DNA of 64,000 nt, taken from positions 145 to 64,144 of IMG/VR virus record IMGVR_UViG_3300044982_000010; one strand, given 5' to 3'. The notes under the pieces were generated by a model. It was not told where the DNA came from. It worked only from the letters and a program-made list of their open reading frames with translations, and did no database searches. Below, in pieces: positions 2,483-63,566 of the stretch (positions are counted from its first letter, which is position 1; each line of letters begins with the position of its first letter). Both the position numbers and the translations under genes were made by a program. Origin of the DNA: a virus. Lineage: Duplodnaviria; Caudoviricetes.

Positions 2483-2892
2483 GGGTCCATCGGCGGCGTG
2501 ATGCGTCCATCGACTTCGTAAGCAAAGATGGCGTGGAGTGGCTAGCAATCAATGCAACCCGCATGAAACTGCTCCACATCCCTCACCGCTCAATGCGCCA
2601 TCGGCGCTACGAGTTAAGTGTTGAACTCACTGAAATCAAAATGAAAGGTGACAAGATGCGCTGCGTATTCGAGACAAAGCTGGCCGTCGATATCGACGTG
2701 AATGATGACAAGCTCCGGTTGGCGTTCATCGAGATGGTGACTCAGACCGCCCGCAACATGTACGGCCCGACCGTGATGCTGGCGAAGAACGCGCCAGTCA
2801 TATCGCTGAGCATGACCACGCGATCCGGCAAGCAGGACATCCCGCTGTTCCCCGAGAACGTTACTCAGGAGAGTGACGATGACGAAACGTGA
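2479..2892 (+). CDS. Hypothetical protein (true start may be 2641 or 2656)
   Basis: ORF between the AAA and VWA genes, with phage-like codon usage in its 3' part. Confidence 0.55.
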   Translation: MRVHRRRDASIDFVSKDGVEWLAINATRMKLLHIPHRSMRHRRYELSVELTEIKMKGDKMRCVFETKLAVDIDVNDDKLRLAFIEMVTQTARNMYGPTVMLAKNAPVISLSMTTRSGKQDIPLFPENVTQESDDDET

Positions 2893-3056
2893 TCGTCAAG
2901 AGTTCGCAGGCTACCTGCGCAACTGCACCGACCGGCAGGTGGCTGGCGTCTGGCAGAAAGAACGTAAGGCGAAGCGTTGGGCATACGCTCGACTGGCTGA
3001 AACCGAAGCGTTGAAGCGAGGAATTAGCCTTTCCCTCTAACCCAAGAGAGTAAACA

Positions 3057-4460
3057 ATGCCGCTCGTTCAAACTGACATCAAGTCCCCGGTCGCTGGCGA
3101 CACCGGCAGGTGGAAGAAGCTGAGCCTCGACGCGATCCGCAACCAGCTATGGGCGGAAACCAAGGCTGGCATGCTGTGGGCTGTCCCTTCCTATGCCGAT
3201 ATTTGGTTGGCGATGATGGTGGATCGCGACGGCGAGCAGGCGTGGTTCACCGACCAAGTTGAAACCGCTGCGACCGACGACAAGTTCCTCTACATCAACA
3301 TGGAGTGGTTCTTTAAGCTCACGCTCGATGAGCGACTCTTTGTGGCGTGCCACGAGATCGCGCACGCGATGTATGGGCATGCCGGTCTGTTCTACATGCT
3401 GCAACTGGCTGGCGAGATACGTTACTCAGATGGGTTAGTGCTGCCAGCCAACGGCGAGATGCTCAACGTCGCTGCCGATTATGTGATCAACGATCAATTG
3501 GTGCAAGCCAAGATTGGCAAGATGCCTTCAGGCGGTTTGCATTGGCCGGGCATGATCAACGGCGACATGGGCGTGCTGGATGCGTATCGCATCTTGTACA
3601 AGATCAACAAGAGCCGCAAGCGCCGACCGGGTAATCAACCGGGTGATCAAGAGAGTGATCAACCGGGTGGGGGCAAGGTGGACGATGCGTGCAAGCGCAC
3701 CACCAAGGACGGCATACCGCAAGGCGAGGGCAGTGGCAAAGCCTTCGACAAAGTATTAAAGCCCGGTGGCGGTTCCGGCAAGAAGCCCAACAAGGCCATG
3801 TCGGAGAGATCGCAGGCCGAGTGGGACACGGCGGTCAACGCGGCGATGGAGAGCGCCAAGCTTCAGGGCAGGTTGCCCGCCAACTTGGAGCGGCTGTTTG
3901 TCAAGCGCTTGCAACCGAAAGCGGATTGGCGCGATCTCTATCGTCTCGCAGTCTCACGTAAAGTGGGCAACGATAGATACACATGGGATCGGCTAGAGCC
4001 GCAACTGATCTATCGCGGCATCGGCGCACCGGGGCGCTCTTCGTATGGTTGCAACATCATCGTGATCGTGGTCGATACTTCTGGATCGATTGACGAGAAT
4101 ACGTTCGCGGTGTTCATGGCCGAGACGACCTCGCTGCTGGAGCAGGCCAAGCCGAAGGCCATCGTGTTCGTCCAGTGCGACACCGACATCCAAGAGTGGG
4201 TGGAGATGGATGGGGTCAGCGATCTCTACCAATGCAAGCTCAAGATGGGCGGCGGCACCAGCTTCAAAGAGCCGTTCCAACGGATCAAGGATGAAGGGCT
4301 GGAGCCTGATCTGCTGGTGTACCTCACTGATCTGTATGGTGACCAAGAAGAGATCGCGCCGCCGAGCTACCCAGTGATCTGGGGCTGCATCAACGAGCGG
4401 AAGGCGACGTGGGGCGAAACGGTGCAAGTGCCAGCACAAACGGGAGAGGGATCGATCTGA
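3057..4460 (+). CDS. Metallopeptidase (HExxH) plus VWA domain protein, DUF2201-like
   Basis: TAATD...CHEIAH...N.AADYVIN peptidase signature; MIDAS DTSGS, GGGTSF and YLTDLYG. Confidence 0.88.
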   Translation: MPLVQTDIKSPVAGDTGRWKKLSLDAIRNQLWAETKAGMLWAVPSYADIWLAMMVDRDGEQAWFTDQVETAATDDKFLYINMEWFFKLTLDERLFVACHEIAHAMYGHAGLFYMLQLAGEIRYSDGLVLPANGEMLNVAADYVINDQLVQAKIGKMPSGGLHWPGMINGDMGVLDAYRILYKINKSRKRRPGNQPGDQESDQPGGGKVDDACKRTTKDGIPQGEGSGKAFDKVLKPGGGSGKKPNKAMSERSQAEWDTAVNAAMESAKLQGRLPANLERLFVKRLQPKADWRDLYRLAVSRKVGNDRYTWDRLEPQLIYRGIGAPGRSSYGCNIIVIVVDTSGSIDENTFAVFMAETTSLLEQAKPKAIVFVQCDTDIQEWVEMDGVSDLYQCKLKMGGGTSFKEPFQRIKDEGLEPDLLVYLTDLYGDQEEIAPPSYPVIWGCINERKATWGETVQVPAQTGEGSI

Positions 4461-4560
4461 GTTAGCTAGCAAGCTCAGATTGAAGGCGGGATGGATGGCG
4501 AGTGCGAGTCCGCGGAGCGTGCAGTGACCTGTTCATCCCGCCGCTAACTCAGGAGAGTAA

Positions 4561-5361
4561 GTGATGAGTGATAAGCCTCTCTTCAAGCTATGGCCACCGA
4601 CCACAACTATCACCTACGCCGATGCTGAAACGCGCGGCAAGCTGCGGCATTGGAAGAAGAAGCTGGCTGAGCGCTACGATGCGTTCGAAGCTGAGTATGC
4701 ACGCGCGGATCGCATGAGCGTCGTTGGCGACATGGTGCGCGGCAGCACCTCCACCCGCCAGCGCGCCTACCAGAAACTAAACAAGATGTTTGGCCCCGGC
4801 GCGGTCAACGAGGGCGTTACTCTCCAGAGAAACAAGTCGCTGGCGATTTGGTCTTATCTCAAGCCGCGCAACGCCGTCACCACTAAGACCAGCGATGATC
4901 TGAGCGAGGCTGAGCGCGCTTCGTTGATGCAGGACTGCGTGACGGTGAACTATGTCATTGCGGGCGTGATTGGCGCAAGGGTTTGTGCCGCAGACGGGTT
5001 GTGGACGTTGGAGGTTCCCGACCACGCGCTAGGCCGCGCCGTCGAGCGCAGCGGCTACCTCCAGCCCGAGGTGATCATCCGCGAAGCGCACATGAACCTG
5101 TTGTCGATGCCGGTGAGCCGGGTCAACGACATCCACTACATCAAGGCTGGGCCGGGATGCTTTGCGGGCGAGCTTATTGTCTCCGACAAGGAAGCGACCT
5201 ATCGCACCTCCATCCATGTGCGAGTGAAGACGTGGCTGGACGACAACATGATGGGCGACAACCAAGTGCCGATCACTGAAGTGGGGGCGCGAGGTCAGCG
5301 CTTGGGCGACAGCATCCTGCTGCCGCGTCCACTGTGGCTGCTTACTCAACGGAGTAAATAA
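4561..5361 (+). CDS. Hypothetical protein
   Basis: 266 aa ORF; AGGAG RBS supplied by the palindrome at 4545. Confidence 0.75.
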   Translation: MMSDKPLFKLWPPTTTITYADAETRGKLRHWKKKLAERYDAFEAEYARADRMSVVGDMVRGSTSTRQRAYQKLNKMFGPGAVNEGVTLQRNKSLAIWSYLKPRNAVTTKTSDDLSEAERASLMQDCVTVNYVIAGVIGARVCAADGLWTLEVPDHALGRAVERSGYLQPEVIIREAHMNLLSMPVSRVNDIHYIKAGPGCFAGELIVSDKEATYRTSIHVRVKTWLDDNMMGDNQVPITEVGARGQRLGDSILLPRPLWLLTQRSK

Positions 5362-5550
5362 ATGACCCTCGCTGAGTTCCTTGTCAAACGTCAAATGAAC
5401 CCAGAAACGTTTGCGGCGCAAGTCGGCGTGCATGCGACGACTATCTATCGGTTGTTGGCCTACCGTACGTTCCCCAAGAAACAGAACCTCAAACGCATTC
5501 TCGCTGCGACAGATGGCGAGGTTACGGTTACGGAGTTAATCCGGCTATGA
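5362..5550 (+). CDS. Cro/XRE-type HTH protein
   Basis: MTLAEFL...FAAQVGVHATTIYRLL...P...ILAATDGEVT is a typical Cro-like pattern. Confidence 0.8.
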   Translation: MTLAEFLVKRQMNPETFAAQVGVHATTIYRLLAYRTFPKKQNLKRILAATDGEVTVTELIRL

Positions 5551-5592
5551 CCCAAAGGGCTGGCTACGGTTGCCAGAAACACAGGAGTAAGC

Positions 5593-5790
5593 ATGTCAAC
5601 ACTCAGCCTTAATGCAGCTAACGTTTTCGAGCAATCGTTGACGGTTGACGAGATACGCAAAGCTATGGATGACGATGGCGCGGCGGAAAACCTGCACGAA
5701 AAGATCGAGCAGTGGCTTGACGAGGCGCAAGGGCTAGTGTTCACCAATGAACACAAGCGAAGTTATCTGGTGATCGAAATCACCAACTAA
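5593..5790 (+). CDS. Hypothetical acidic protein
   Basis: AGGAG RBS; 65 aa. Confidence 0.7.
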   Translation: MSTLSLNAANVFEQSLTVDEIRKAMDDDGAAENLHEKIEQWLDEAQGLVFTNEHKRSYLVIEITN

Positions 5791-5977
5791 GCTCCCTGCC
5801 AAGGGAACACTCTCGGCAGCGGGAGCGACGGCACCGGCTAGGTAGCGCCCCGTAGCTTACGGTAGAGCAGCGGGCAACGTGGAGCCTTCAAGATGGGGTT
5901 CGGGCCTTTGGCAGGGTCGCAGGCATAACTCCCGTGAAACCCCATAAACCGTCGCAACTAAAAACAAGAGACGACCA

Positions 5978-6826
5978 ATGAACACACATCTCGTGAGTTA
6001 CATCGACAAGAAGCTTGATGAGGCGGCTAACTTCGTCATCCGTTACATGCCGGTGAACATGCCGACCGACCGGATTTACGAAGACTTGGTGGGCGAGCCG
6101 CACGTGGCGGCGGCGTTCCGCGAAGCGGTCAAGTACCTGCCGCCATCGGCGCTCAACCGTCGTGCGATCCTCAAGCTGGGCGACCTGCTGCTCAACGTGT
6201 CGCTGCGGTTCGCTCCGACCGACGCCTATCCCGTGTTCCTGATGCCGAAGTATGATCTGGCGGTTACTCACGAGAGTGAGTTGGGGCAGTCGATGAGCAT
6301 GGCGATCCAAGTCACTCGCGAATGGGAGATGCTGATCAAGACGTGGGAGAAATTCAGAGAGGCCGCGCCTGATCCGCATACGCTTGGGTTCCTGTTCCCG
6401 TGGCTGCGCGAGATCATGCTCGACTTCCATGTCGGGCTGCTCGACGTGAGCATCAAGCGCAAAGCCGACCGTGAGAAGATCGAGCGCGAGGTGCGAGCGA
6501 TCCAACGGCGCTTCCCGCCCAAGAGCTTCCCACGTCTGAGCATCGAGCTTAACCGGGTATGCCAGTCGGGCAAGCGGTTGTTCGGGCAGTACCGGATGCT
6601 GGAGGCTTCAACCAAGGACACCGATCTGACCCGCGCCGCGCTCAGCATCGACCGGGTGACCAATCTAAGCCCGGCATGGTTGAACGAGCATATGGAAGAG
6701 TGCATTGCCGGTTGGTTTGAAGAGACAATGGCGATCACCCGGCAAGACGGCAGCGACATGACCGGGCGGCGGCGCAAGGCTTTCAAGGTCACCGTACCGT
6801 TCGTGACCCCACAGGAGAGAAGGTAA
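5978..6826 (+). CDS. Hypothetical protein
   Basis: 282 aa ORF; TAATG coupling to the next gene. Confidence 0.75.
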   Translation: MNTHLVSYIDKKLDEAANFVIRYMPVNMPTDRIYEDLVGEPHVAAAFREAVKYLPPSALNRRAILKLGDLLLNVSLRFAPTDAYPVFLMPKYDLAVTHESELGQSMSMAIQVTREWEMLIKTWEKFREAAPDPHTLGFLFPWLREIMLDFHVGLLDVSIKRKADREKIEREVRAIQRRFPPKSFPRLSIELNRVCQSGKRLFGQYRMLEASTKDTDLTRAALSIDRVTNLSPAWLNEHMEECIAGWFEETMAITRQDGSDMTGRRRKAFKVTVPFVTPQERR

Positions 6827-7137
6827 TGGCAGGTTTCACCTACAAGTCATACTCGTTTGTGGACAAAGACCCGATGATTGATCAGGTGCGGACAATCATT
6901 CTGGACAGCCACGACACTTATAAGCAAATAGCGGAGGCGAGTGGTGTCACCGAAGGCACCATACGCAATTGGCTGGACGGCGCAACGAAGAAACCGCAAG
7001 CCGCCACCTTCAACGCCGTGCTGCGAGCGTTGGGCTACAAACTTACTATCCGCCAGCTTGCTGAAGCTGAGACAGTCGCGCCAACTATCAGCATGCGTCA
7101 CGTGGTGCAGATGGCTAAATATCGGAAGCGCAAGTAA
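6826..7137 (+). CDS. XRE-family HTH protein
   Basis: YKQIAEASGVTEGTIRNWLDGATKKPQAATFNAVLRALG. Confidence 0.85.
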   Translation: MAGFTYKSYSFVDKDPMIDQVRTIILDSHDTYKQIAEASGVTEGTIRNWLDGATKKPQAATFNAVLRALGYKLTIRQLAEAETVAPTISMRHVVQMAKYRKRK

Positions 7138-7317
7138 CTCGGGAAAGTAAACAATGAGCGTGAACAATAAACGATCATACCCGTGTATTGAAGCACGCTT
7201 GAAGGAACTTGGCTACCTAGCGCGTGAACGCCAAAGGATCATCCACCGTGCGGCGAAGGGTTCTCCTAAGCATATCGAGTGGATCAGGCGCATGTATGTG
7301 CAACGCCATTGGAGAGC

Positions 7318-7794
7318 ATGATGCCGGTAAAATTTAAGGTCGGGTTCACCATCGACGCGCAGACGCTGTTCGCCATGATGTCCAAGCTTCTGCCGGTGGA
7401 CGACGTGACGGTGGAAGAACTGATCGAGCGCCCGCTGCCGTCCGACAGGCTGGTGCTACAACCTGTACCACCCGGCGCAATGGCGATCCTCAATGCCGCC
7501 AAGCAACAAACCAAGGCTAGGCTCAAGCCCAAACAATACAAGCGCCTACCGCGCAAACCTTTGGACTTGCATGCAGGGATAAATAGGATCATTATGGAGG
7601 CGTTGTCGGACGGCTTTGCGCACCGCTCTGTGGACTTTAAGTCGCTGCTCAAGAAGGGCGGCTACTCCGAGAACTCAGTTGGCTCACGGCTTCAGAACCT
7701 GCGCGAGCATGGCGTAGTCGAACAGATGGGTGACGGCACGTGGAGATTGGCAAACTTCCCCGCAACCGCCACGACCGGGGCTGGCCGCGAGTAG
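7318..7794 (+). CDS. Protein with putative C-terminal winged helix
   Basis: C-terminal IMEALSDG...YSENSVGSRLQNLREHGVVEQMGDGTWRL; GGAG RBS before 7318. Confidence 0.6.
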   Translation: MMPVKFKVGFTIDAQTLFAMMSKLLPVDDVTVEELIERPLPSDRLVLQPVPPGAMAILNAAKQQTKARLKPKQYKRLPRKPLDLHAGINRIIMEALSDGFAHRSVDFKSLLKKGGYSENSVGSRLQNLREHGVVEQMGDGTWRLANFPATATTGAGRE

Positions 7795-7917
7795 AGGTGA
7801 TCACGTTTGTTGTCGAGACTGATCAAAGCTGGCGCTTCTGCATTGAGCCAATGGGTTGGCGCGATGCTATATGGGAGCGTAGCGGTTACGTGGAAATTAT
7901 TGTTTGGAAACCGATCC

Positions 7918-8208
7918 ATGTTAAGAGTACAACGTAAGGCATGCGCCACCTGCGTCTACCGCGACGATAGCCCTATCAACGTGGCGGCGTTGGAGGCGCG
8001 CGTGCGCGATCCCTGTGGTGATTTCACCACATATCGTGTCTGCCATCACTCCGAGAATGCGTGCTGCCGTGGCTTCTGGAACCGGCATAAGTGGAAGTTC
8101 CCGCTTGGGCAGATTGCTCAGCGCCTGAAGATGGTCGAGTACGTGGACGACCACGAGGTCACTCAGGTGAGTAAGGATGTGGCCAAGATGTTCAAGGACA
8201 AGACATGA
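7918..8208 (+). CDS. Small Cys-rich protein
   Basis: CATC...CHH...CCRG putative metal-binding pattern. Confidence 0.65.
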   Translation: MLRVQRKACATCVYRDDSPINVAALEARVRDPCGDFTTYRVCHHSENACCRGFWNRHKWKFPLGQIAQRLKMVEYVDDHEVTQVSKDVAKMFKDKT

Positions 8209-8369
8209 TCAGTTGGATCATAGCCGGGGTATGGATCGGGTTCGTGCTTGGCTATGTCGCCTACCACGTCGGCTACTGGCGCGGCTACAAGGGCGGGCTG
8301 GCGTATGGCATGGATAAGCTAGCGGACTACCACGAGTATACGATAAAGAACTTGCGGGGCTTGAAGTAA
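8205..8369 (+). CDS. Small membrane protein (54 aa, not in ORF track)
   Basis: MISWIIAGVWIGFVLGYVAY...; coupled on both sides (ATGA and TAATG). Confidence 0.6.
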   Translation: MISWIIAGVWIGFVLGYVAYHVGYWRGYKGGLAYGMDKLADYHEYTIKNLRGLK

Positions 8370-8656
8370 TGCGCGATAGCCGGGTGCCGCCATCGAAGTG
8401 CTTAAACTGCGGTAAGCTCATGGATGCGGCGACAGATATCGAGAGCAACCATGTTCCGACGCCCGGCAGCATTGGCATATGCATGTATTACATGCACGTG
8501 ATGGCGTACGCGGACGACCTGACGCTGCGAGAACCAAACGACGAAGAGATCAAGGAGCTAGCCGGTCACCCGGAATTGTTGAAGCATATGAAGATGCTGG
8601 GTAGCTTTCACCAATGGAGGAAGTTGCGAAATGCCGCGAAAAAGAAAGCACCATGA
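8369..8656 (+). CDS. Hypothetical zinc-ribbon-like protein
   Basis: CLNCG...P.PGSIGIC. Confidence 0.65.
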   Translation: MRDSRVPPSKCLNCGKLMDAATDIESNHVPTPGSIGICMYYMHVMAYADDLTLREPNDEEIKELAGHPELLKHMKMLGSFHQWRKLRNAAKKKAP

Positions 8657-8927
8657 GACTTGCCCTTCGTGCGCGTTCATCCACGCGTACCGGCTCAAGT
8701 ACGGCAAGCACCGGCACGACGAGAAGCCGTTCAACCATATGGTGCATAGCGCCATCAAGATCGCTGCTATCGTCCTCTCCAAGCTGGAGAACGAACAGAA
8801 GGCGAAGTTCATCGCCAACATGCTGGCGTATGCGGCGCATCTTGAAGGGAAGGACGTGGGCGGCGTCCTCATTAAAGATGGTGAGGTGATCACGCCGTCC
8901 GAGGCCAAGGAGCCGACCAAGCATTAG
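8631..8927 (+). CDS. Hypothetical protein
   Basis: GGAGG upstream; CPSC motif. Confidence 0.6.
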   Translation: MPRKRKHHETCPSCAFIHAYRLKYGKHRHDEKPFNHMVHSAIKIAAIVLSKLENEQKAKFIANMLAYAAHLEGKDVGGVLIKDGEVITPSEAKEPTKH

Positions 8928-8928
8928 C

Positions 8929-9333: not shown

Positions 9334-9347
9334 AAAGGCGGTGGAAT

Positions 9348-11238: not shown

Positions 11239-11279
11239 GTTACAACTATAAGGCGAGTTAAATACAACCTCTACGGGTG

Positions 11280-11308
11280 TTGACAACAAGCGACACTTGT
11301 GTCATATT
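11280..11308 (+). promoter_or_regulatory. Possible sigma70 promoter
   Basis: TTGACA-17 bp-CATATT in an intergenic gap. Confidence 0.5.
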
Positions 11309-56948: not shown

Positions 56949-56989
56949 CCCTCGCTGTCCTTGTACCCACTTGCCACGGTAACATAAGA

Positions 56990-57018
56990 GGTATACCATG
57001 CTCACATAACACTGTCAA
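56990..57018 (-). promoter_or_regulatory. Promoter for the portal/structural operon
   Basis: Minus-strand TTGACA(57018-57013)-17 bp-TATACC(56995-56990). Confidence 0.65.
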
Positions 57019-57032
57019 GTAGGGTGTGAAAA

Positions 57033-57566
57033 ATGTTTAATTTGACAGCGGACGACGAGCAACGGCTGCGCGCACTCGCTGCCGGATTAGCCAAGGATAT
57101 GGAAGACACCGACAAGCTGCTGGAGCGACTCGGGTTTACACGCGAAGACTACAACGAACTGGCGGAAACCCGCGCGTTCAAGACTGTCCTCAATCAAGCC
57201 CTGAGCGAATGGGAGGGCGCGAGCAACACGCATAAAAGAATACGCCTGAAAGCAGCGACCAACATCGAGCAGGCTCTCCCCCATTTTTTCCACGCCATGA
57301 CCGACGACAAAGAGCCGTTAAGCTCGCGGGTGAAAGCGTTCGAGATCGTCGCCCGCGTCGGCAACCTCGGCAACCCGGACGTGATCCCACCGGGCGGGGG
57401 CCAGTTCTTCAAGCTGGAGATCAACCTCGGCGGCGGTCGCGCGCCACTGGTGTTCGACAACGTGACGGACACACTGACGGATATTGAATCGGGGGTCGAG
57501 ACTTACTCACCTGAGTTACCCCAGATCAGCCGGGCATGGACCGGCAGGGAGAGGGAGCCGCTATGA
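57033..57566 (+). CDS. Hypothetical protein, possibly terminase small subunit-like
   Basis: Helical N-terminus and C-terminal F.LEINLG strand; lies between TerL and portal but on the opposite strand. Confidence 0.5.
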   Translation: MFNLTADDEQRLRALAAGLAKDMEDTDKLLERLGFTREDYNELAETRAFKTVLNQALSEWEGASNTHKRIRLKAATNIEQALPHFFHAMTDDKEPLSSRVKAFEIVARVGNLGNPDVIPPGGGQFFKLEINLGGGRAPLVFDNVTDTLTDIESGVETYSPELPQISRAWTGREREPL

Positions 57567-57880
57567 TGGACAATAAGCCCGAACTGAAGACGATCCCCCG
57601 CGTCCTAGACCCCAATCAGAAGCTGATCAACCTCGTGCGGGAAGTTCTCAAGGACGCCAAGGAGGGCAAAATCCACGCTCTCGGCATTGCGGTCGGAAGA
57701 GTGGATGACAACGCTGGCTCCGACAACGGGCGCTGCACCGAAACAATATGCGCTGCGTCTGACGGCTGGCTTCATACGCTGGCCACGGCAGTGAACGGAT
57801 TGGCGTTTCGGATGAACTACGAGCGCTACAGCCAAGGCAGCAAGCTGCCGGTGGCGGAAATGGACGACAAGGATGAGTGA
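57563..57880 (+). CDS. Hypothetical protein
   Basis: L.EVL.DAKEGKI..L.IAV; coupled start. Confidence 0.6.
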   Translation: MMDNKPELKTIPRVLDPNQKLINLVREVLKDAKEGKIHALGIAVGRVDDNAGSDNGRCTETICAASDGWLHTLATAVNGLAFRMNYERYSQGSKLPVAEMDDKDE

Positions 57881-58166
57881 GTTTCACGTCGGTGATCGTG
57901 TGATCAAGCGCGGCGAAGATAGCCAGTTTGAGGGCGAGGTGGTGGCGCTGTTCACCAAGCGCAACGGCAAAACCCTGCGCTACGTGATCGAGAACGACGA
58001 CGGCGTGCTGCATATCGCCGGGCCGAAGCAACTGCACTGGATCGCCAAAGGCTTTATCGTCACGTCCACGCTAGCGAAGAAATTGGGCGTCGAACCGGAC
58101 GAGGGGGTCGCAACCGGCTCACCACACGCCCCAGCACCCACGCATAAGCCCCTTGGTTGCCGGTGA
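57873..58166 (+). CDS. Small SH3/KOW-like hypothetical protein
   Basis: FHVGDRV.K.G....FEG.VV..F......RYV.E...G.LHI. Confidence 0.65.
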   Translation: MSEFHVGDRVIKRGEDSQFEGEVVALFTKRNGKTLRYVIENDDGVLHIAGPKQLHWIAKGFIVTSTLAKKLGVEPDEGVATGSPHAPAPTHKPLGCR

Positions 58167-59604
58167 CCAAGCAGGCATACTGAAGACAGTCCGCGACATC
58201 GCTCCACGGATGAAGTTTCTCAGGCACGGTTTTTTGGTACGTGCCGCCCGACTTATCCTGATCCACTTCAAACTTATACTGCCCGTTCAAGGCCGAGACG
58301 AGGGTGGGACATCGTGTCCCGTCGATCAGTATGGCGGGTCCACCCGCGACGTTGCGCCCGAAGAAGCTCTCCACCCCTCGTATGCGCGGGTCAAGGTCGT
58401 TGGTCGGCGCTGGCTCGGCGTTCAACCCGCACCCTTTCAGGAGATCAAACGCGTTCATCTCAAACAGGCTGTCTCGGGCCATGCCGGTCGGGTCGCCCAC
58501 CAGCACGACGGGACGGCCAGCGTAGCGTTGCTGGATCAGCACCGGGATCAGGTTTTGCCTGATGTGAAGCTGTAAGCCGATGTTGTCGCCGGTCGGCCCA
58601 CGCCCCGGAATTTCTTCTAGGACCAAGAGGCGACCAGAGTGGTCGAGTTGAGTGATGAGCGACCACGGCGACCGCCCGAAATCCTGCCCCACCACAAGCA
58701 TGCGGCTATACACAGGGTCCAGAGGAGTGGGGCTGACATGGTAGTCATATTTGAAGCTCTCCGCGAACACCGCCGCGCCGGATGGATCGCGCCCGAACTG
58801 CGACCACACATACCTCCTGATGTAGTCAGGCGAGCCAACGCTCAAGAGCCGGTTGTAGTATCCCATGCCCTGCTGGATGCGGCGCGGGTCGTTCTCGTCC
58901 AAGAGCATCGTCTCGGCGGTCTGATTGAGATGGGCAAGGTTTTCCGCCCCGTCGATCTGCTCCCCGGTCACCGGGTCAAAGCTGGGGTAGACATGCCCGC
59001 CCGGCTGATGGAACACCTGCCACTCGGGCGGCGGCTTGTCGAGGAAATTCGCCCACGGCGTATGAATGATCGGGGCGTTGGTGTCCATCCAGATGCCTGA
59101 CCACGTGCAGGCCCCGAACTCGTTATTGGGATAACGCCCGACGCGCCCGGCGATATCGCTGAGCAGATCAATGTCAGTCTCGATGCACTCGTTGACGTAC
59201 GCCGCCGTAAGTTGCAAGCTCAAGAGCCGCTTCACGTCGTCAGGCTCATCCAACGGGATGAACGGCCATTCGGACACCACATCGCCGTACTCGATGTACA
59301 ACGTACTTTCCGACACTTTCCAGTCCGCCAAGCACCCAAACCAGCCGCGCACGTCCTTGAGGACCGTGGCTTTTGCGTCCTTCAGGCTCTGTCGGATGAT
59401 CGCGATGCGGGAATAGCGCCTGCCATCGGCATGGGAGGGGGCCTGCTCGGCCATCCTCCGGGCGGCCTCCACGATGCACGCGGTGGTCTTGCCTGATCCG
59501 ACCGGACCCCAGATCAGCCGTCCAAACGCACTAGACTGAAGGAACGAGGAGATGGTGGGCGGGGCGTTATAGGTCCACTGCTGCCGTACTGATCCAGTTC
59601 GCAT
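58060..59604 (-). CDS. terL: Terminase large subunit
   Basis: GPVGSGKT Walker A, YVNE, DTN.P; nuclease GQDFG, GDP.G, H.WSDVADCLQY. Confidence 0.92.
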   Translation of the reverse strand: MRTGSVRQQWTYNAPPTISSFLQSSAFGRLIWGPVGSGKTTACIVEAARRMAEQAPSHADGRRYSRIAIIRQSLKDAKATVLKDVRGWFGCLADWKVSESTLYIEYGDVVSEWPFIPLDEPDDVKRLLSLQLTAAYVNECIETDIDLLSDIAGRVGRYPNNEFGACTWSGIWMDTNAPIIHTPWANFLDKPPPEWQVFHQPGGHVYPSFDPVTGEQIDGAENLAHLNQTAETMLLDENDPRRIQQGMGYYNRLLSVGSPDYIRRYVWSQFGRDPSGAAVFAESFKYDYHVSPTPLDPVYSRMLVVGQDFGRSPWSLITQLDHSGRLLVLEEIPGRGPTGDNIGLQLHIRQNLIPVLIQQRYAGRPVVLVGDPTGMARDSLFEMNAFDLLKGCGLNAEPAPTNDLDPRIRGVESFFGRNVAGGPAILIDGTRCPTLVSALNGQYKFEVDQDKSGGTYQKTVPEKLHPWSDVADCLQYACLVTGNQGAYAWVLGRVVSRLRPPRPVRRPISSLAWT

Positions 59605-59703
59605 TCGCTTGCCACGTCTTTCTCGTTCTCCCCCACCCCTTAATCCCCCACCCCTTAATCCGGCAGGGTAAGGTTTAACTTCAAGCCTTCAGAACGAAAG
59701 TTA

Positions 59704-59746
59704 CCCCCAGCCCAAGGGACAGACATCTTGGGACTGGGGGTTTTTT
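59704..59746 (+). terminator. Hairpin with + strand U-tract in the terL leader
   Basis: CCCCCAGCCCAAG...CTTGGGACTGGGGG-TTTTTT. Confidence 0.55.
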
Positions 59747-59821
59747 GCCGCAAGGGTCTTTTGTGATTGCACCCTTGGTGTTCCCTTCGCCCGTGGCAGG
59801 AGCGCGAGTCCACTAATCCTG

Positions 59822-59850
59822 ATTATAGTATGGCGCATGTTGTTTGTCAA
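59822..59850 (-). promoter_or_regulatory. Consensus sigma70 promoter upstream of terL
   Basis: Minus-strand TTGACA(59850-59845)-17 bp-TATAAT(59827-59822). Confidence 0.85.
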
Positions 59851-60120
59851 GAGGCTAGGATGCTTTGGAGTGACTTACTCACATGAGTTTGAAGACTTGA
59901 GGGCGGGTTCGGCTTTACTGTATTTACTTGGTGAATACTTGTCAAGTCGGTCTTCTGGCTACGATATATCGTAAACTCATATCGATGGGTGGTATTCATA
60001 TTGTACAGTGGGGGAGTGTGCGATGTTCCCTGACCCAATATTTTGTGCGTTCACCTAAACGCGCCCACCCCGGTGCCACCCCCCGGTCCAGATGGGGTGG
60101 CCACCCCCTGCTTCCCCCCA

Positions 60121-60478
60121 GAGTAGGCTACGAGGTGGAAACACGTAAAGCCGCAGTATCCGGCGAAACCTCGGAGACGACCCCTCCACGGGCAGGGTTC
60201 GCGGCGCTAGTGCGCTAAGTCGGTGCGTCCGACGAATGTCACTCAGGGGAGTTAGAAAACGGTGGAGCGCCACCCCTGAAACAACAATGATCTACGCCCA
60301 TGCCTTGTCCAACGATAAGCTGAGAATGGTGCAAATTCCCACGGTAAGCGGATGATGACAAACAAGGCATGACGATGGAAGTGACCAGCCCCGATTAGTT
60401 AGCGAGGGCGGATCGTGAGACATCGTGAAGAGTAACTGTGAGGCGGCGCGGCTTAACCGCGCCGCCTTCAGTTGTTCT
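60121..60478 (+). ncRNA. Candidate structured non-coding RNA
   Basis: Nested stems, a GAAA tetraloop and a closing GC hairpin; no convincing ORF. Confidence 0.35.
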
Positions 60479-60528
60479 TCCAAGCTAACTCACGTGAGTT
60501 AGTTTCGAGGAACAACTGGAGAAAGCTC

Positions 60529-60768
60529 ATGAAAATCCACAAAGGTATGGTGAACGCCAGAGTAGTCACGCAAGTGACCGCTCACTATCGCCATGCGGTC
60601 TATCAGACGCAAGACGCGACAGGAACACTTCCTGCGTTTGGCGTGCAACACGTCATGCCCGCGCGTGCAGTGAACACGATACACATTCCGACTGCAACCG
60701 AGTCCGCACGTAAGTGCAAACTCGTAAAGTCGGGTGGCAAGCTCGTTCGTCGGGTGACCTACCGATGA
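60529..60768 (+). CDS. Hypothetical early protein
   Basis: GGAG RBS before ATG 60529. Confidence 0.5.
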   Translation: MKIHKGMVNARVVTQVTAHYRHAVYQTQDATGTLPAFGVQHVMPARAVNTIHIPTATESARKCKLVKSGGKLVRRVTYR

Positions 60769-61113
60769 ACGACGCGCCCAATCGTGAACAGGAAGAGTTG
60801 GAGCGCTACGACGCGCTTCAACGCTGGCTTGACGCGCAAATTGCGCGCTGAACACCGGCATGAGGGTGATTTCTGTAAATCTCCCTCATTCCAGTATTCA
60901 GTTAAGGCATAATTTCGGGTTATGAGAACCCGGCAGGGAAAAGTGTCAGTTATCACTGAGACTTAGCACATATGAGTGTGTAATTCATTATTCATATATA
61001 TATATAAAGACCCTAGGCAAAATTTTTTGCTTATGGGCCTACGGCATGGGGCGCGTAACTCACGCGAGTAACCTCCCTAGAGCTTTCATTGCGCTGGCGA
61101 TAATGAATTAGCG

Positions 61114-61126
61114 TAAGTCATTGATA
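61114..61126 (-). promoter_or_regulatory. IHF consensus site
   Basis: Minus-strand TATCAATGACTTA matches WATCAANNNNTTR; next to an AT-rich tract. Confidence 0.5.
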
Positions 61127-61181
61127 TCGTTACACATTCAGCTCATGGTTGTAATGAATAAGCCATGCAATCGCTGGTTAG

Positions 61182-61210
61182 TTGATATATACAGTAGTTG
61201 TGTATACACT
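61182..61210 (+). promoter_or_regulatory. Early sigma70-type promoter
   Basis: TTGATA-17 bp-TACACT, then AGGAG and ATG 61236. Confidence 0.65.
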
Positions 61211-61235
61211 ACTCATGTACACAGGAGTTGTATAC

Positions 61236-61442
61236 ATGAAAACCAATCCACGCTTAGTGTTGTCCCGCATGTACGTTGACGCTCAACGCCTGAAGGCTTG
61301 GGCGGACGATAGCGGTTCGACTAAACAGCAACAGCTTGCTGACTTCTTTGTCCAAGCTCTGTTCCGTCTATGCGCTACAGATACGTTCCCTTTAACCAAC
61401 AACATGGAGAGTGATGACAATGCTGAACATAAGCTACCGTAA
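61236..61442 (+). CDS. Hypothetical early protein
   Basis: AGGAG RBS. Confidence 0.55.
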   Translation: MKTNPRLVLSRMYVDAQRLKAWADDSGSTKQQQLADFFVQALFRLCATDTFPLTNNMESDDNAEHKLP

Positions 61443-61605
61443 GGTGGGCGGACTTCGGTTCGTTAAGATCGGACGCCTCACCTTCATGTGGTGCGTGTCG
61501 CGCAGGTACTCGCAAGCTCGCAGCAAACCTCTCCATGCCGGATCGCGGCGGCGCACCCAGCGCGCACAACCCGTGCAACCTCTCTTGTTGACGGGACTCA
61601 GGTGA
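61411..61605 (+). CDS. Small basic early protein
   Basis: GGAG RBS; ISYRKVGGLRFVKIGRL. Confidence 0.55.
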   Translation: MMTMLNISYRKVGGLRFVKIGRLTFMWCVSRRYSQARSKPLHAGSRRRTQRAQPVQPLLLTGLR

Positions 61606-61699
61606 GTAAGCTCGACGCCCTTCTCATCATCGCGCTCGTGGTGTTCTGCATCATGCCATGCGGCGCTGTTCTCCTCGATGCACTGGGAGTTCTACCGTA

Positions 61700-61975
61700 A
61701 TGTATCGAACCACCAATCCGCCCGGCATTGGCATACGCGGGCGCACTAACAACGGACGCGCGGCGTGCTGGGCGCTCATGCTCATGGACAAGCGCATCGA
61801 ACTGCCTGTTCACACCGACTGGTGGATGCGCGGCGCGCGCTACGGCAAGGTGACATCCATCGGCAAGGATGCGCGCTGGGTCTATGTCAAGCTCGACGCG
61901 CTGCCCACTAAGCACAAGCGCATCAAGCTGTGGGCCATCGACTACGAGTACGCTAAGATCAACCCCGCGCTCTAA
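61700..61975 (+). CDS. Hypothetical early protein
   Basis: RIELPVHTDWWMRGARYGKVT.IG; GGGAG upstream. Confidence 0.6.
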   Translation: MYRTTNPPGIGIRGRTNNGRAACWALMLMDKRIELPVHTDWWMRGARYGKVTSIGKDARWVYVKLDALPTKHKRIKLWAIDYEYAKINPAL

Positions 61976-62133
61976 TACTGAGCGCGCTCACACACCACAG
62001 GAGGTTGCCATGCAACCCGCGCACTAAACATGCGCGCGACAGCAAGAGCGTAACTCAGCATTGATAGCGTCCACGTCGGCACGAGCAGTCGAATGGGCGC
62101 TATCAGTAGTGAGTTAACTCAGGAGAGTAAGAT

Positions 62134-62343
62134 ATGCGCACAATGCCGAAGCGCGCAACCAAGCGCGAGCTACCCACGGATGGCACGGTGCTGGTGATCA
62201 ACGACAGTCGTGACGCCACACAGGACTATTACCTGCCCGCCGAGCGCGCCGAGCGCCTGTTCGACATGGGCAAGCTTTGCATGGTCATGGTCTACTCAGG
62301 CAAGTGGGACTATGCAACCGCCGATGGGCATAAGGTATACTGA
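62134..62343 (+). CDS. Hypothetical early protein
   Basis: RBS from the palindrome at 62115. Confidence 0.65.
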   Translation: MRTMPKRATKRELPTDGTVLVINDSRDATQDYYLPAERAERLFDMGKLCMVMVYSGKWDYATADGHKVY

Positions 62344-62450
62344 GCAACCCAAAGGCGTAACAACCAGCGCAACTATCAACACGCGCGATATGTGTGCTGC
62401 GTATGCAAGTACACATACGCAATAAGTGTCATTTGGTGTAACTTTACCAC

Positions 62451-62479
62451 TTGACATGCGCTATCAGGCGTGCCATCAT
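62451..62479 (+). promoter_or_regulatory. Possible promoter
   Basis: TTGACA-17 bp-CATCAT. Confidence 0.5.
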
Positions 62480-62564
62480 TAACCCTTTCACTGCCGGTCT
62501 ACAAGACCAGTATGGATCACTGGTGACGAGTGTTTACAGTCACAGAAAGCACGAGGTATTGGAT

Positions 62565-63566
62565 ATGGCGCGTAAGGCATTGAATACCGGCAACGAGGTT
62601 GACGAGGCCGAAATTGTCACTGAGAACCCCGAGGCGGTCGTGGATCAGGAGTGGAACGCTGCCGATCCGGACGCGGCGGCGGTCGAACACGAGAGCGAAG
62701 TCACTCAGGAGAGTGAGGTGACTAACCCCGCTCCGACTGAGCAGGAGATCGCGGATCAGGAAGCCGCAGGCGTGAACGTCGATGCGGCCGACGCCAAGCG
62801 CACCACGGCTCGCCAGAAGAAGGCGCTGCTGAAGAAGATCGGTGACATTGGCGAGGCGTACGGCGCTGGTAAAACGTCGATGATCGAACTCGCTCAAGAA
62901 GTGACCGAGGCGGCCGTCAACAAGACCGTGGGCGAGAGCGATGCCGAGGACTTATACAAGACCTTCAAGGCTCGCGCCGACAAGCGCTCCACCATTGCCG
63001 CCGAGAATGGCGGCGTCGTGGTACCTGACGAGGTGGCCGTGATCGGCTCGCTCGATCAGCAGGTCAGCAAGGTGCGGACGTTCATCAAGCTGGGCAACAC
63101 CTTCGATGACGGCGTCGATATCGTTGAGCGCGCCATCGCCGTTCACCTCGCGGCCAAGGCGGCGGCGAGCAATCCCAAGGCGGTGATGTCGGGATCGACC
63201 TACACCGTGATCGGCTCCATCGCCACCGAGCAACTCAAGGATAAGTGGGGCGGCGCGGCGATGAGCAACGCGCAAATGCACGAGCATATCGCTCGCAGCG
63301 TCACCGAGCAGGGTCCGCCGACAGGGGCGGACAAGGTGCGGCAGGCGCTCGACAGCGCGATCAGCGCACGCAAGGGCGCAAGCTCGCAGAAGTCGCATCG
63401 TCCTCCGGTCGAGAGCCAGCACTTGGACGACGCCATCGACGCGCTCTATCGGGCGCTGGGTGACGCCTCGCCAGCGGCTCAGGCGGCGTTCGACAAGGAG
63501 CAGGAAGACGCCAAGGCAAAAGCTGAGGCGGCGGAAGCGCGGAAGGCCAGCAAGAAGGCCGCGTAA
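62565..63566 (+). CDS. Hypothetical protein with acidic N-terminus and KAA-type basic tail; own transcription unit
   Basis: GAGG RBS before ATG 62565, with a promoter upstream and a terminator downstream. Confidence 0.8.
   Translation: MARKALNTGNEVDEAEIVTENPEAVVDQEWNAADPDAAAVEHESEVTQESEVTNPAPTEQEIADQEAAGVNVDAADAKRTTARQKKALLKKIGDIGEAYGAGKTSMIELAQEVTEAAVNKTVGESDAEDLYKTFKARADKRSTIAAENGGVVVPDEVAVIGSLDQQVSKVRTFIKLGNTFDDGVDIVERAIAVHLAAKAAASNPKAVMSGSTYTVIGSIATEQLKDKWGGAAMSNAQMHEHIARSVTEQGPPTGADKVRQALDSAISARKGASSQKSHRPPVESQHLDDAIDALYRALGDASPAAQAAFDKEQEDAKAKAEAAEARKASKKAA

Follow-up and report, generated by a model that had tools for sequence, protein, structure and literature searches.

A genome-wide DNA palindrome as the best explanation for a VTQES-like peptide in unrelated podophage proteins

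Distribution of the palindrome

The DNA analyzed here, hereafter the window, is a 64,000-nucleotide stretch that comprises almost the whole 64-kb genome of a soil podophage. A short palindrome recurs along its entire length. Exact ACTC-N4-GAGT cores number 45, compared with an average of 0.53 across 30 second-order Markov simulations, and the runner-up palindrome of the form X4-N4-rc(X4), GCGC, has 10 copies. Modeled with a symmetric 18-bp weight matrix, the site reads S-TTACTCAC|GTGAGTAA-S, and 63 sites score at least 12, compared with 0.3 in 10 simulations. Lone TTACTC hexamers are found 22 times where 12.6 are expected; the enrichment concerns the whole palindrome, not the half-site. Sites occur about once per kb along the whole genome with no gap larger than 2.5 kb, and the coefficient of variation (CV) of the gaps is 0.625 vs. 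0.98 under random placement (0 of 5000). Even spacing was also found in all eight genomes tested (CV 0.57-0.80, P<=0.043).

Non-coding DNA and positions no more than 30 nt from a gene end together make up 15.6% of the window and contain 32 of the 63 sites (p=8e-11), with the proviso that gene calls are rough and the class of a few gene-edge sites hinges on start-codon choice. In the start-proximal class (18/63), the right arm stops 0-8 nt upstream of the start codon, and the spacer and GAG act as a Shine-Dalgarno sequence. The spacer is AGGA at 6 of these 18 sites, and 8 overlap the upstream TAA stop codon. Perfect palindromes concentrate in the non-coding control region, and relatives carry three perfect copies at 21-bp spacing. 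The gene-edge and non-coding sites are as follows.

936..62134: start-proximal sites, first part, cores 939, 1347, 3040, 4547, 5344, 11643, 15618/15631, 20650 and 21423
936..62134: start-proximal sites, second part, cores 24119, 32247, 38829, 40152, 49001, 52089, 53411 and 62117
7134..52106: stop-overlapping sites with a TAA-CTC left arm, cores 7137, 15631, 16428, 17637, 20650, 25154, 38829 and 52089
7134..52106: stop-overlapping sites with a GAG-TAA right arm, cores 11643, 15618 and 16415
59874..61613: 2-kb non-coding control region with five cores, 59877, 60241, 60488 (perfect, ACTCACGTGAGT), 61058 and 61596
59850-59822 (-): sigma-70 promoter in the control region, 12/12 consensus match
63570..63956 (+): downstream of gene 62451-63566, cores 63573 (variant) and 63939, the latter within the 104-bp terminal redundancy of the contig

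Sites inside genes

The sites inside genes are as follows.

2231..2248 (+): frame 0, VTLPSK, ATPase gene 1367-2482; identical in all three relatives
2860..2877 (+): frame 0, VTQESD, gene 2479-2892, whose stop lies 18 nt further; arms identical in relatives G002 and G001/G003
6263..6280 (+): frame 0, VTHESE, 282-aa early protein gene 5978-6826
8158..8175 (+): frame 0, VTQVSK, gene 7807-8208
10558..10575 (+): frame 0, LTQVSK, family-A DNA polymerase gene 9466-11238
12045..12062 (+): frame 0, VTQESI, gene 11658-12119
13401..13418 (+): one-mismatch site (GGGT arm), VTQEGK, 27 nt inside ORF 13377-13622, whose start is uncertain
15293..15310 (+): frame 0, DTLLSK, SNF2 helicase gene; AGGAG spacer on the antisense strand
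17083..17100 (+): frame 0, VTRLSY, gene 16465-17637
18413..18430 (+): frame 0, GTQQSK, gene of the 983-aa DUF927 primase-helicase-like protein
26012..31225 (-): five sites in the 2269-aa virion protein gene, cores 26015 (RTLVSN), 30614 (VTQASK) and 31208 (VTQESK) in frame 0, 27622 (frame 1, variant) and 28731 (frame 2, LLKGV) off frame
33602..36724 (-): 2179-aa virion protein gene, cores 33605 (LTPVSK), 34950 (frame 2, LLKRV) and 36707 (variant, VIQPSN)
43329..43346 (-): frame 0, VTQESK, gene 43320-43685, whose stop lies 12 nt further
45124..47697 (-): frame 0 in tail-fibre-like genes, cores 45127 (LTLVGN, variant), 46819 (weak, VTLESY) and 47680 (VTLLSY)
50331..50348 (-): frame 1, GYSREL, gene 50110-51285
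55917..55934 (-): frame 0, LTQASN, portal gene 54411-57005
62700..62717 (+): frame 0, VTQESE, gene 62451-63566
274..57522: remaining internal sites, cores 277, 3424, 41427 and 57505 in frame 1 (Y-S-x-E/G-L), 9987 and 12902 in frame 2, 4819 (frame 0 variant) and 23904 (weak)

The site in the 282-aa early protein falls in the loop that joins strand 94-96 to helix 101-129, and its position is retained in relative G004 with that lineage's own motif (IDPEGK). The polymerase peptide LTQVSK aligns with Taq 'PREAVD', between the motif-A region and the O-helix region. The ATG of a 53-aa ORF lies 4 nt downstream of the 2860..2877 site.

With the edge sites held fixed, the internal sites (n=30) fill gaps better than random coding positions do (P(CV)=0.0002), and none of 5000 random trials matched the observed largest gap. 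This spacing constraint accounts for sites deep inside 6-7 kb genes, which the original prediction had considered beyond the reach of promoter control alone.

The peptide imprint

Internal sites prefer one reading frame. Frames 0:1:2 are used 19:7:4 in the window, where codon usage alone predicts about 25:68:7%, and 18:4:3 in G002, 21:0:1 in G006, 29:2:9 in G008 and 13:0:4 in Rhizobium phage RHph_TM27A (TM27A); the ratio of 7:1:5 in G007 is not significant. Motifs with an odd-length N3 spacer divide between two half-good frames. Unrelated proteins share a VTQES-like peptide because the palindrome is written in one frame where no intergenic gap is available. VTQES itself occurs five times in 19,429 residues vs. 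a mean of 0.01 in 1000 residue shuffles, each time at a site, and the pattern [VLI]T[QHLPR].S[KNDE] matches 12 times against 0.65 expected, again exclusively at sites (12/12).

The original prediction listed 12 examples of such a peptide in unrelated proteins. All 12 can be read as placed and 11 lie in the frame of the called gene; the exception, QVTHESY (50332), belongs to an overlapping frame, and the real, conserved 391-aa gene at 50110-51285(-) has G-Y-S-R-E-L there. The position of that site is nonetheless retained in G004, G005 and G007, each with its own motif. The peptide's codons, described earlier as atypical, are indeed minority codons in genes whose GC3 is 0.726: ACT provides 18% of Thr, AGT 9% of Ser and GTT 13% of Val codons, and 22 of 118 AGT codons fall in sites. 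A suggestion that the peptides would lie in variable loops gained no overall support, with a mean conservation percentile of 0.48 and 13 of 24 sites under the median.

Conservation in relatives and lineage-specific motifs

Frame-0 coding sites were aligned to two relatives of 70-85% nucleotide identity, G002 and G001/G003. Synonymous third positions in the arms are identical at 56/64 (p=6e-6) and 59/71 (p=1e-4) positions, respectively, vs. a background of 62%, whereas the spacer third position is kept at 8/16 and 6/17. A G002 site lies at most 12 nt away for 25 of 34 mapped coding sites (0.9 expected). Even G004 keeps 6 of 22 positions (0.26 expected), though its motif is TTACCC-N3-GGGTAA. The converse pattern, a kept peptide with a broken palindrome, was named in the original prediction as the mark of a protein-level signal; the comparison did not refute the DNA-level reading, and only two such cases were seen (15296 in G002; 12048 in G001/G003).

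Related lineages, cultured Rhizobium phages among them, each have their own palindrome and their own peptide. These lineage peptides match the respective motif and are found at sites only: VT..GN in G008 and TM27A, VT..SD in G006, and IDPEGK in G004. The TM27A motif is GTTACCT-N4-AGGTAAC, and the motifs of G006 (TCACTAT) and G007 (TAACTGC) are unlike Shine-Dalgarno sequences, with the architecture unchanged. Across lineages, the peptide tracks the motif type and is not conserved in itself.

Selection on DNA, protein or RNA

The best explanation is that the VTQES-like peptide is a by-product of a selected 18-bp DNA palindrome, not a protein signal, and we hold with high confidence that DNA-level selection causes it. 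The earlier proposal that selection on the DNA site outweighs codon and protein preference is supported, with the qualification that the cost to the protein still influences the form in which a site is written. It would be extremely improbable for selection to keep the peptide as a cleavage, modification or interaction motif, with the palindrome incidental. Residues E99 and S100 are invariant in all 15 aligned homologs of the 282-aa early protein, down to 34% identity, and the sites at 15296 and 12048 agree with such a signal. However, gene edges and non-coding DNA hold 32 of the 63 sites, 11 of the 30 internal ones use a frame other than 0, synonymous arm positions are well above background while spacer residues change, and the peptide shifts with each lineage's motif. 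The carrier proteins, among them polymerase, portal, helicase and virion proteins, are also unrelated.

An mRNA hairpin, UUACUC-NNNN-GAGUAA, could hide the Shine-Dalgarno sequence, either to couple translation or to act as operator for an RNA-binding repressor. The geometry of the 18 start-proximal sites, with their AGGA spacers and overlapped TAA codons, is of the coupling type, and the 'start-associated sequences' of Cluster K mycobacteriophages provide, in the available part of the source, a precedent for repeats at ribosome-binding sites (PMC3203893). Yet the two half-sites change independently of each other: the counts are 14/27/23/19 for single T5>C or A12>G variants and 1/1/2/2 for compensated doubles. 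Neither is the U.G-compatible variant favored on the sense strand (5 vs. 4 in the window; 14 vs. 17 in G002). Without compensatory arm changes or a sense-strand bias, an RNA hairpin is very unlikely. The remaining wobble variants lack enrichment and the outer flank pairs lack covariation; predicted folds in six contexts are weak (-3.4 to -9.8 kcal/mol, z +0.1 to -2.6), no Rfam family matches, and the same architecture occurs in lineages whose motifs do not resemble Shine-Dalgarno sequences (G006 and G007). A single-stranded DNA hairpin read sequence-specifically, as a primase or initiator signal, is compatible with the absent covariation and may be considered as well.

A putative duplex site and its possible functions

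The site is rather more probably than otherwise the duplex site of a putative dimeric protein, and the combined reading, in which DNA-level selection causes the peptide and such a protein binds the duplex, appears likely. A symmetric dimer would bind each site as duplex DNA and read the two half-sites independently. Gene edges are used where possible, TAA ends doubling as stop codons and the spacer plus GAG as a ribosome-binding site, and in long genes additional copies are written into coding sequence, filling gaps. In the preferred coding phase, the 18 bp would form six codons, (G/C)TT-ACT-CNN-NNG-AGT-AA(G/C), giving [V/L]-T-[Q/H/L/P/R]-x-S-[K/N]. The least protein cost is expected of this frame because it contains no stop codon and its invariant residues are only small or polar; its price would be the rare codons ACT, AGT and GTT. 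The candidate binder is most likely phage-encoded, would need to sit on the chromosome, or load onto it, at regular short distances, and would diverge jointly with the site between lineages. Its candidate roles are genome-wide marking, coating or roadblock, or a replication loading site.

Across the 13 relatives compared with the window, no protein shows an identity pattern that follows motif class. The HTH_3 protein (6826-7137), considered as a binder, does not covary with the motif and is missing from G009, G011, G008 and TM27A. The parS sites of ParB and OB sites of KorB are palindromes of 13-16 bp from which bound dimers spread or slide, and the inner half of the window consensus (TCAC|GTGA) resembles the center of common parS. 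In contrast to these systems, the window has tens of sites, not a few, its outer half-site differs, and no ParB-like domain was found among its 74 ORFs.

Any one downstream function can be proposed only tentatively. A replication signal is a possible though doubtful reading, in which the sites, as duplex or as a lagging-strand-template hairpin, serve the 983-aa DUF927 primase-helicase-like protein for loading or priming, with the main origin at the non-coding cluster. In eukaryotic viruses, palindromic origins are where SF3 helicase initiators assemble. A spacing of roughly 1 kb, the absence of gaps above 2.5 kb and a strand-identical site would allow priming whichever way the fork moves; the perfect sites are concentrated in the non-coding region, and relatives have three copies at 21-bp phasing. 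A module of 164-aa, 390-aa and 983-aa proteins is, moreover, the fastest-evolving part of the conserved core, with switches at 27%, 11% and 12% of otherwise conserved columns vs. 0-5% in polymerase, helicase, capsid and terminase. Against this, G007 keeps the palindrome architecture, yet a tblastn search of its contig, which is 94% complete, gave no match to any of the three module proteins. Motif class is not followed by any sub-domain of the 983-aa protein, and we know of no precedent for some 60 such sites in one phage. Less probable, and in our view unlikely, is that the sites mark the DNA for nicking, cleavage or base modification, or that the small terminase reads them for packaging. T5, tf and phiKMV-like phages are known to carry localized nicks at short consensus sequences, and one of the few DNA-binding candidates shared by all 13 relatives compared is a terminase-small-subunit-like protein whose N-terminal domain is helical. 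Nicking at a palindrome would cut both strands, however; the window yielded no methyltransferase or modification gene, and the terminase-like protein has few lineage-specific switches (1/24 conserved columns). A stoperator-like or KorB-like network, with a repressor bound throughout the genome as a global transcriptional silencer or roadblock, is a tentative candidate on a par with the replication signal. Size and symmetry are typical of operators bound by dimers, there are sites that overlap sigma-70-like promoters (core 25154 sits between -35 and -10 elements), and cores 939 and 59877 are close to predicted start points. The majority of sites nevertheless lie away from promoters, roadblocks need not fill the interiors of long genes, and scans against PHROG and Pfam returned neither an integrase nor an immunity repressor nor a partition gene. 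Motif divergence between lineages recalls heteroimmune repressor/stoperator pairs, as described in the available part of the source (PMC6550527), but stoperators are asymmetric and oriented with transcription.

Comparison with known systems

The statements on published systems below refer to the available parts of the cited papers. The stoperators of Cluster A mycobacteriophages, 20-30 repressor sites in a genome of about 50 kb, share with the window a genome-wide, mostly off-promoter distribution and a consensus that varies by subcluster and co-evolves with the binding protein (Mavrich and Hatfull, 2019, PMC6550527). They differ in being 13-bp sites of a monomeric immunity repressor in temperate phages, whereas the window sites are palindromic and fill long genes, with neither repressor nor integrase found. 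The SAS/ESAS of Cluster K likewise lie 3-7 bp before start codons, have an AGGAG core, sometimes overlap the upstream stop codon, and had their function left open; unlike the window sites, SAS are asymmetric, in a single orientation, confined to the non-structural genome half and absent from gene interiors (Pope et al., 2011, PMC3203893). Uptake sequences (USS/DUS) are also short DNA-selected motifs, about one per kb, with preferred coding frames, whose encoded peptides become commoner while conservation of the residues otherwise roughly equals that of the remaining protein (Findlay and Redfield, 2009, PMC2817400). However, USS are asymmetric, belong to competent bacteria, are read by the uptake machinery, and have preferred frames that correlate with preferred codons (PMC2817400), whereas the window motif is a phage palindrome in a rare-codon frame with about half of its sites at gene edges.

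Among the published descriptions available, a 17-bp dyad-symmetric repeat in Cluster O mycobacteriophages, 5'-TGTTCGGNNNCCGAACA, comes closest as a precedent (Cresawn et al., 2015, PMC4351075). The 34 sites of Corndog comprise 14 intergenic, 10 near gene starts and 10 mid-gene; the authors suggest sites for a dimeric protein and leave the function open (PMC4351075). Both systems have more than 30 genome-wide copies, two invariant arms, a short variable spacer, positions mostly common to relatives and a majority of sites off promoters. Cluster O phages are Mycobacterium siphoviruses; sequence, phage type and host all differ, and the available part of that paper describes no frame bias or peptide imprint, spacing statistics or lineage motif switching (PMC4351075). 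The present analysis documents all three, the frame bias with its peptide imprint, the spacing statistics and the lineage-specific switching of the motif, across a large podophage family.

A recurrent palindrome in a podophage-like genome

The sequence ACTC-N4-GAGT occurs 45 times in the window, against a mean of 0.53 in simulations, and the second most frequent palindrome of the form X4-N4-rc(X4) reaches 10 copies. The half-site logo reads S-T-[T/A]-A-C-T-C-[A]-[C] and the consensus is TTACTCAC-GTGAGTAA, which makes the whole element a palindrome of 18 bp, S-TTACTCAC-GTGAGTAA-S, in which two arms flank a variable spacer. A symmetric weight matrix identifies 63 sites in 64 kb (0.98 sites per kb), where 0.3 would be expected. 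Of the possible single mismatches, only T>C at the third arm position and its mirror, A>G, are enriched (7 and 7 copies versus about 0.9 each). The same motif is present in 37, 29 and 26 copies in three related IMG/VR contigs, whose nucleotide identity is 70-86%.

The window represents nearly all (positions 145-64144) of a single 64,144-bp contig, the first 104 bases of which are repeated at its end. This redundancy (genome 1-104 = 64041-64144; window 63897-64000) includes one palindrome site and may reflect either overlap from a circular assembly or a direct terminal repeat of short length. Part of the window sequence also occurs in contigs assembled from two soil metagenome runs, and no RNA data set is listed for it. 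Our own ORF calls, scanned with PHROG and Pfam, give a podophage-like gene content:

Left arm, + strand: MoxR-like ATPase, DUF2201 metallopeptidase/VWA protein, family-A DNA polymerase
Left arm, further, + strand: PD-(D/E)XK exonuclease, VRR-NUC-like protein, SNF2 helicase, 983-aa DUF927 primase-helicase-like protein
Right arm, - strand: M15 endolysin, giant virion proteins of 2269 and 2179 aa, tail-fibre genes
Right arm, further, - strand: major capsid protein, SU10-like portal
After the right-arm genes: large terminase subunit, then a 2-kb non-coding region

No integrase, repressor, partition gene or RNA polymerase was recognised by PHROG/Pfam among the 71-74 ORFs, many of the small early ones being unannotated. 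Several individual loci were recorded alongside:

1367-4460, +: the MoxR-like ATPase and DUF2201 metallopeptidase/VWA pair, present in every relative whose contig spans the region
21707-22372, -: 221-aa protein with a PEP-CTERM motif at its end (E=2e-7), an unusual feature in a phage that may hint at the kind of host
33482-33560, +: tRNA-Pro(GGG) call by ARAGORN, antisense inside the 2179-aa gene and probably a false positive
51808-52086, -: 92-aa protein with a Tad2-like (Thoeris anti-defence 2) domain (E=2.7e-23) in the head-gene region, its ribosome-binding site covered by a palindrome site

Reading frame and the peptide imprint

The original prediction held that the palindrome is written into unrelated proteins as a VTQES-like peptide. 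All twelve of its example peptides can be read at their positions, 11 of them in the frame of a called gene. The exception is QVTHESY (50332), which lies in the wrong frame, the conserved 391-aa gene having GYSREL at that spot. VVTQEGK (13402) is readable as described, but belongs to a variant site near an uncertain gene start. The sharing of the peptide by unrelated proteins is well borne out: VTQES occurs five times in 19,429 residues versus 0.01 in shuffled sequence, each time at a site, and a looser hexapeptide pattern occurs 12 times (0.65 expected), likewise always at sites (12/12). The codons are atypical, as had been proposed, and rare: in a genome with a GC3 of 0.73, ACT accounts for 18% of Thr codons, AGT for 9% of Ser codons and GTT for 13% of Val codons.

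Among the 30 sites well inside genes, frames 0, 1 and 2 are used in the ratio 19:7:4 (p=0.002 against uniformity), frame 0 being the phase in which the 18 bp are read as six whole codons. Codon usage alone predicts approximately 25:68:7%, favouring frame 1 (p=8e-7). In frame 1 the TAA would fall in frame, and sites in this phase therefore carry GAGTTA or GAGTTG instead; frame 2 encodes L-L-x-[G/R]-V using the rare TTA, GTA and NGA codons. We infer that frame 0 is the cheapest phase. The frame preference extends to relatives whose motifs are of even length: the ratio for internal sites is 18:4:3 in G002, 21:0:1 in G006, 29:2:9 in G008, 13:0:4 in the cultured Rhizobium phage RHph_TM27A (TM27A) and, without reaching significance, 7:1:5 in G007 (G001-G013 denote related IMG/VR contigs). 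Odd-length N3 motifs are divided between two phases, each with one arm in the good frame (8:16:2 in G004; 14:14:6 in G005). Each lineage has its own peptide. For example, [VLI]T..G[NK] occurs 19 times in G008 (19/19 at sites) and 12 times in TM27A (11/12), and [VLI]T..S[DE] occurs 13 times in G006 (13/13), whereas shuffled proteins contain 1.2-1.7 copies of such lineage peptides.

The expectation that the peptides fall in variable loops found no general support, as sites do not lie in less conserved stretches overall (mean percentile 0.48; 13/24 below the median). In the DNA polymerase, LTQVSK aligns to 'PREAVD' of Taq, between the motif-A and O-helix regions. For the 282-aa early protein, the one carrier protein modelled, a confident model (pLDDT 84) places the hexapeptide within the loop that joins a strand to a long helix.

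Selection on the DNA site

Background identity to relatives amounts to 84% for first, 89% for second and 62% for third positions of codons. At frame-0 sites, in contrast to the 62% background, arm third positions are identical in 56/64 and 59/71 cases, whereas the spacer third position is identical in only 8/16 and 6/17. Spacer residues vary freely (Q to P, H or R; E to V, G or A), and T and S are kept. A G002 site lies within 12 nt of 25 of the 34 mapped coding sites of the window, compared with 0.9 expected. The conservation of arms at synonymous positions supports the proposal that selection is for the DNA site and not for the peptide.

Several other accounts of the array were considered. 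Chance or base composition is excluded by Markov simulations and by a reversed-pattern control, which occurs once in each of the three relatives, versus 26-37 copies of the motif. A Chi-like role for isolated half-sites was rejected: outside palindromes they reach only 1-2.4 times expectation in eight genomes, and 22 versus 12.6 expected in the window. Singly, half-sites are barely enriched; the unit is two of them together. A mobile 18-bp element inserted in frame is likewise rejected, as orthologous stretches lacking a site mostly differ by substitutions and have no clean 18-bp gaps, with short length differences at three such stretches in relatives (8161, 17637, 20650).

Transcripts of the sites might alternatively act as RNA hairpins or translational operators. 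Unlike in such elements, pairing in the window sites is not kept by compensatory or wobble changes. Single arm variants outnumber compensated doubles by 14:1, 27:1, 23:2 and 19:2 in four genomes, and the variant that keeps a U.G pair in the mRNA is not commoner than the C.A one (5:4 and 14:17). Flank positions show no covariation, predicted RNA folds are weak (z versus shuffled sequence from +0.10 to -2.57 in six contexts), and no Rfam family matched. These patterns of variation suggest that the element acts as duplex DNA and that an RNA hairpin is unlikely; a DNA hairpin read sequence-specifically may take the place of the duplex site.

Placement and spacing of sites

Sites are concentrated around gene boundaries. 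Non-coding sequence and the 30 nt next to gene ends together make up 15.6% of the window but contain 32 of the 63 sites (p=8e-11); the other 31 are inside genes. Eighteen sites end 0-8 nt upstream of a start codon, where the spacer and the GAG of the right arm supply the ribosome-binding sequence (the spacer is AGGA in 6/18). The stop codon of the upstream gene is provided by TAA-CTC at eight sites and by GAG-TAA at three. The non-coding control region holds five sites, one of them a perfect ACTCACGTGAGT. A few sites overlap sigma-70-like promoters; most do not. The following arrangements were noted:

15615-15645 and 16412-16442: doublets of overlapping sites at gene ends, offset by 13 bp, in both of which TAAC is common to the right flank of one site and the left arm of the next
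59850-59822, -: perfect 12/12 sigma-70 consensus promoter (TTGACA-17-TATAAT) directed toward the large terminase gene, with a palindrome site approximately 50 bp upstream and another promoter-like site at 59945-59917
G001:C1:26926-26979: three perfect ACTCACGTGAGT copies at exact 21-bp spacing in a non-coding region
G002:C1:28502-28552: two ACTCACGTGAGT copies 39 bp apart in a non-coding region

The ACTCACGTGAGT copies of G001 and G002 resemble an origin or an array of operators. Identical alignment statistics against the window suggest that G001 and G003 belong to a single phage.

Sites are more evenly spaced than expected from random placement. The coefficient of variation (CV) of the gaps is 0.625 versus 0.98 for random placement, none of 5000 random sets is as even, and the largest gap is 2509 bp. 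When the 33 edge and non-coding sites were held fixed and the 30 internal sites were placed randomly in coding sequence, the observed evenness was matched in 0.02% of trials and the largest gap never. Internal sites fall in the long gaps between edge sites; the 2269-aa gene holds five of them and the 2179-aa gene three. Across eight genomes to which weight matrices were applied (the window, G002, G004-G008 and TM27A), sites occur at 0.67-1.43 per kb and are more even than chance (CV 0.57-0.80, P<=0.043). No significant period between 100 and 1500 bp was detected in five genomes.

Motif types and in-place switching among relatives

Scanning IMG/VR with the capsid protein yielded 292 relatives, and 80 loci were retained; 13 relatives were analysed as whole or near-whole contigs. 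The family is large and mostly uncultured, with Rhizobium phages as its cultured members. At least six motif types occur among the relatives: ACTC-N4, ACTC-N3, ACCC-N3, ACTA-N4, ACTG-N4 and ACCT-N4.

Table. Palindromes of the window and its relatives.
TTACTC-N4-GAGTAA: the window, G002, G009, G010, G011
TTACTC-N3-GAGTAA: G005, G012
TTACCC-N3-GGGTAA: G004, G013
TCACTAT..ATAGTGA: G006
TTAACTGCT-AGCAGTTAA: G007
GTTACCT-N4-AGGTAAC: G008, TM27A

Site positions are retained although the motif differs. Six of 22 mapped coding sites of the window coincide with a G004 site of the other motif type (0.26 expected), and at window position 50334 the same spot of the same protein bears the local motif in G004, G005 and G007. 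The hexapeptide of the 282-aa early protein is V-T-[H/Q/R]-E-S among its close homologues, I-[N/D]-P-E-S among those with 35% identity and I-D-P-E-G-K in G004. RHph_TM27A is distant from the window phage (capsid 66%, primase-helicase 29% identity), and its palindrome copies often lie directly 5' of ATGs. Annotations in the Rhizobium phage record were also noted:

L013 (MN988461.1) 42248-45331: homologue of the DUF927 primase-helicase-like protein labelled 'putative integrase', a label not supported by the homology found
MN988461.1 24636-24649 and 56680-56693: attL/attR marked inside genes

Search for the binding protein

By identity pattern, lineage-specific switches or windows of the 983-aa protein, no protein tracked motif class. 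An HTH_3 protein was rejected as the binder:

6826-7137, +: HTH_3 protein, unusually conserved for an early gene (56-80% identity versus 20-38% for its neighbours)

Its recognition helix is near-identical in G006 and G007 despite their different motifs and differs between the window and G002, which share a motif; the protein was not detected in G008, G009, G011 or TM27A, and several of the relatives without it are complete. The replication module (164-aa, 390-aa and 983-aa proteins) is the fastest evolving, and its proteins were not found by tblastn in G007, which still has a palindrome. A 177-aa protein adjoining the portal is probably the small terminase subunit, although its matches to small terminases are only weak (E about 0.1); it is present in 13/13 relatives compared. 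For the 390-aa and 177-aa proteins, a protein atlas offered weak leads and named no relative beyond these. The 282-aa early protein had no fold match (Foldseek best E=1.0; VIA best Z=4.5), and no ParB-like Pfam family was found at E<=1e-3 in 74 ORFs, a threshold that a divergent protein could escape.

Comparison with known systems

The nearest precedent for the array is found in Cluster O mycobacteriophages, whose 17-bp dyad repeat has 34 inter- and intragenic copies and no assigned function (PMC4351075). Like this repeat, the window has tens of 15-18 bp inverted repeats with a short variable spacer, distributed genome-wide, between and inside genes, at positions common to relatives. In contrast to TGTTCGG-N3-CCGAACA of Cluster O, however, the window consensus is TTACTCAC-GTGAGTAA, and among the matches listed, capsid matches to Mycobacterium phages reach only about 26% identity. 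The imprint on proteins has a parallel in the uptake sequences of competent bacteria (USS/DUS), which, unlike the window motif, use preferred codons in their preferred frames (PMC2817400). The window motif resembles them in its density of about 1 per kb, its frame bias and the raised frequency of the encoded peptide, but it is not that of a competent bacterium, because it resides in a phage genome of 64 kb that encodes portal, capsid and terminase.

Stoperators are asymmetric, oriented sites that are numerous and co-evolving (PMC6550527). The motif of the window family likewise differs between related lineages, but the site is palindromic rather than asymmetric in one orientation; co-orientation is limited to the spacer and is explained by coding and Shine-Dalgarno use. 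Start-associated sequences sit at the ribosome-binding site (PMC3203893); unlike them, the window sites are symmetric and also lie inside genes. Literature searches on over-represented phage palindromes and on the Rhizobium phage names turned up no account of the motif or of these phages.

Implications for the phage family

The original observation is confirmed and its interpretation supported. Novel aspects are the frame rule together with peptides specific to each lineage, spacing that fills gaps, motifs that switch in place, and the spread of the feature through a large family of soil phages. Even spacing, gap-filling in 6-7 kb genes and in-place switching suggest a function requiring coverage of the entire chromosome and recognition specific to the lineage, which none of promoters, operators, stoperators or pac sites explains well. 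One tentative, rather unlikely reading is a fast-diverging cis-trans 'genome marking' in this soil podophage family, in which a putative dimeric protein would need its own palindrome at least every 2.5-3 kb along the chromosome, a function new for phages. The need would be strong enough to place in-frame sites in polymerase, portal, helicase and giant virion genes, and a change in specificity would convert sites in place (ACTC-N4 to ACCC-N3, etc.). Such sites might load a protein that spreads along the entire genome or shields it, or might serve as a self-recognition signal telling apart co-infecting relatives.

With related Rhizobium phages available as cultures, both binder and function are directly testable. 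As the same rule recurs in six or more lineages, with six different palindromes, the signature is practical for finding hidden site arrays in metagenomic phages. More broadly, this is a clear, controlled case in which a non-coding DNA requirement overrides codon choice and leaves a peptide signature in unrelated phage proteins, an imprint so far documented mainly for the uptake sequences of competent bacteria.
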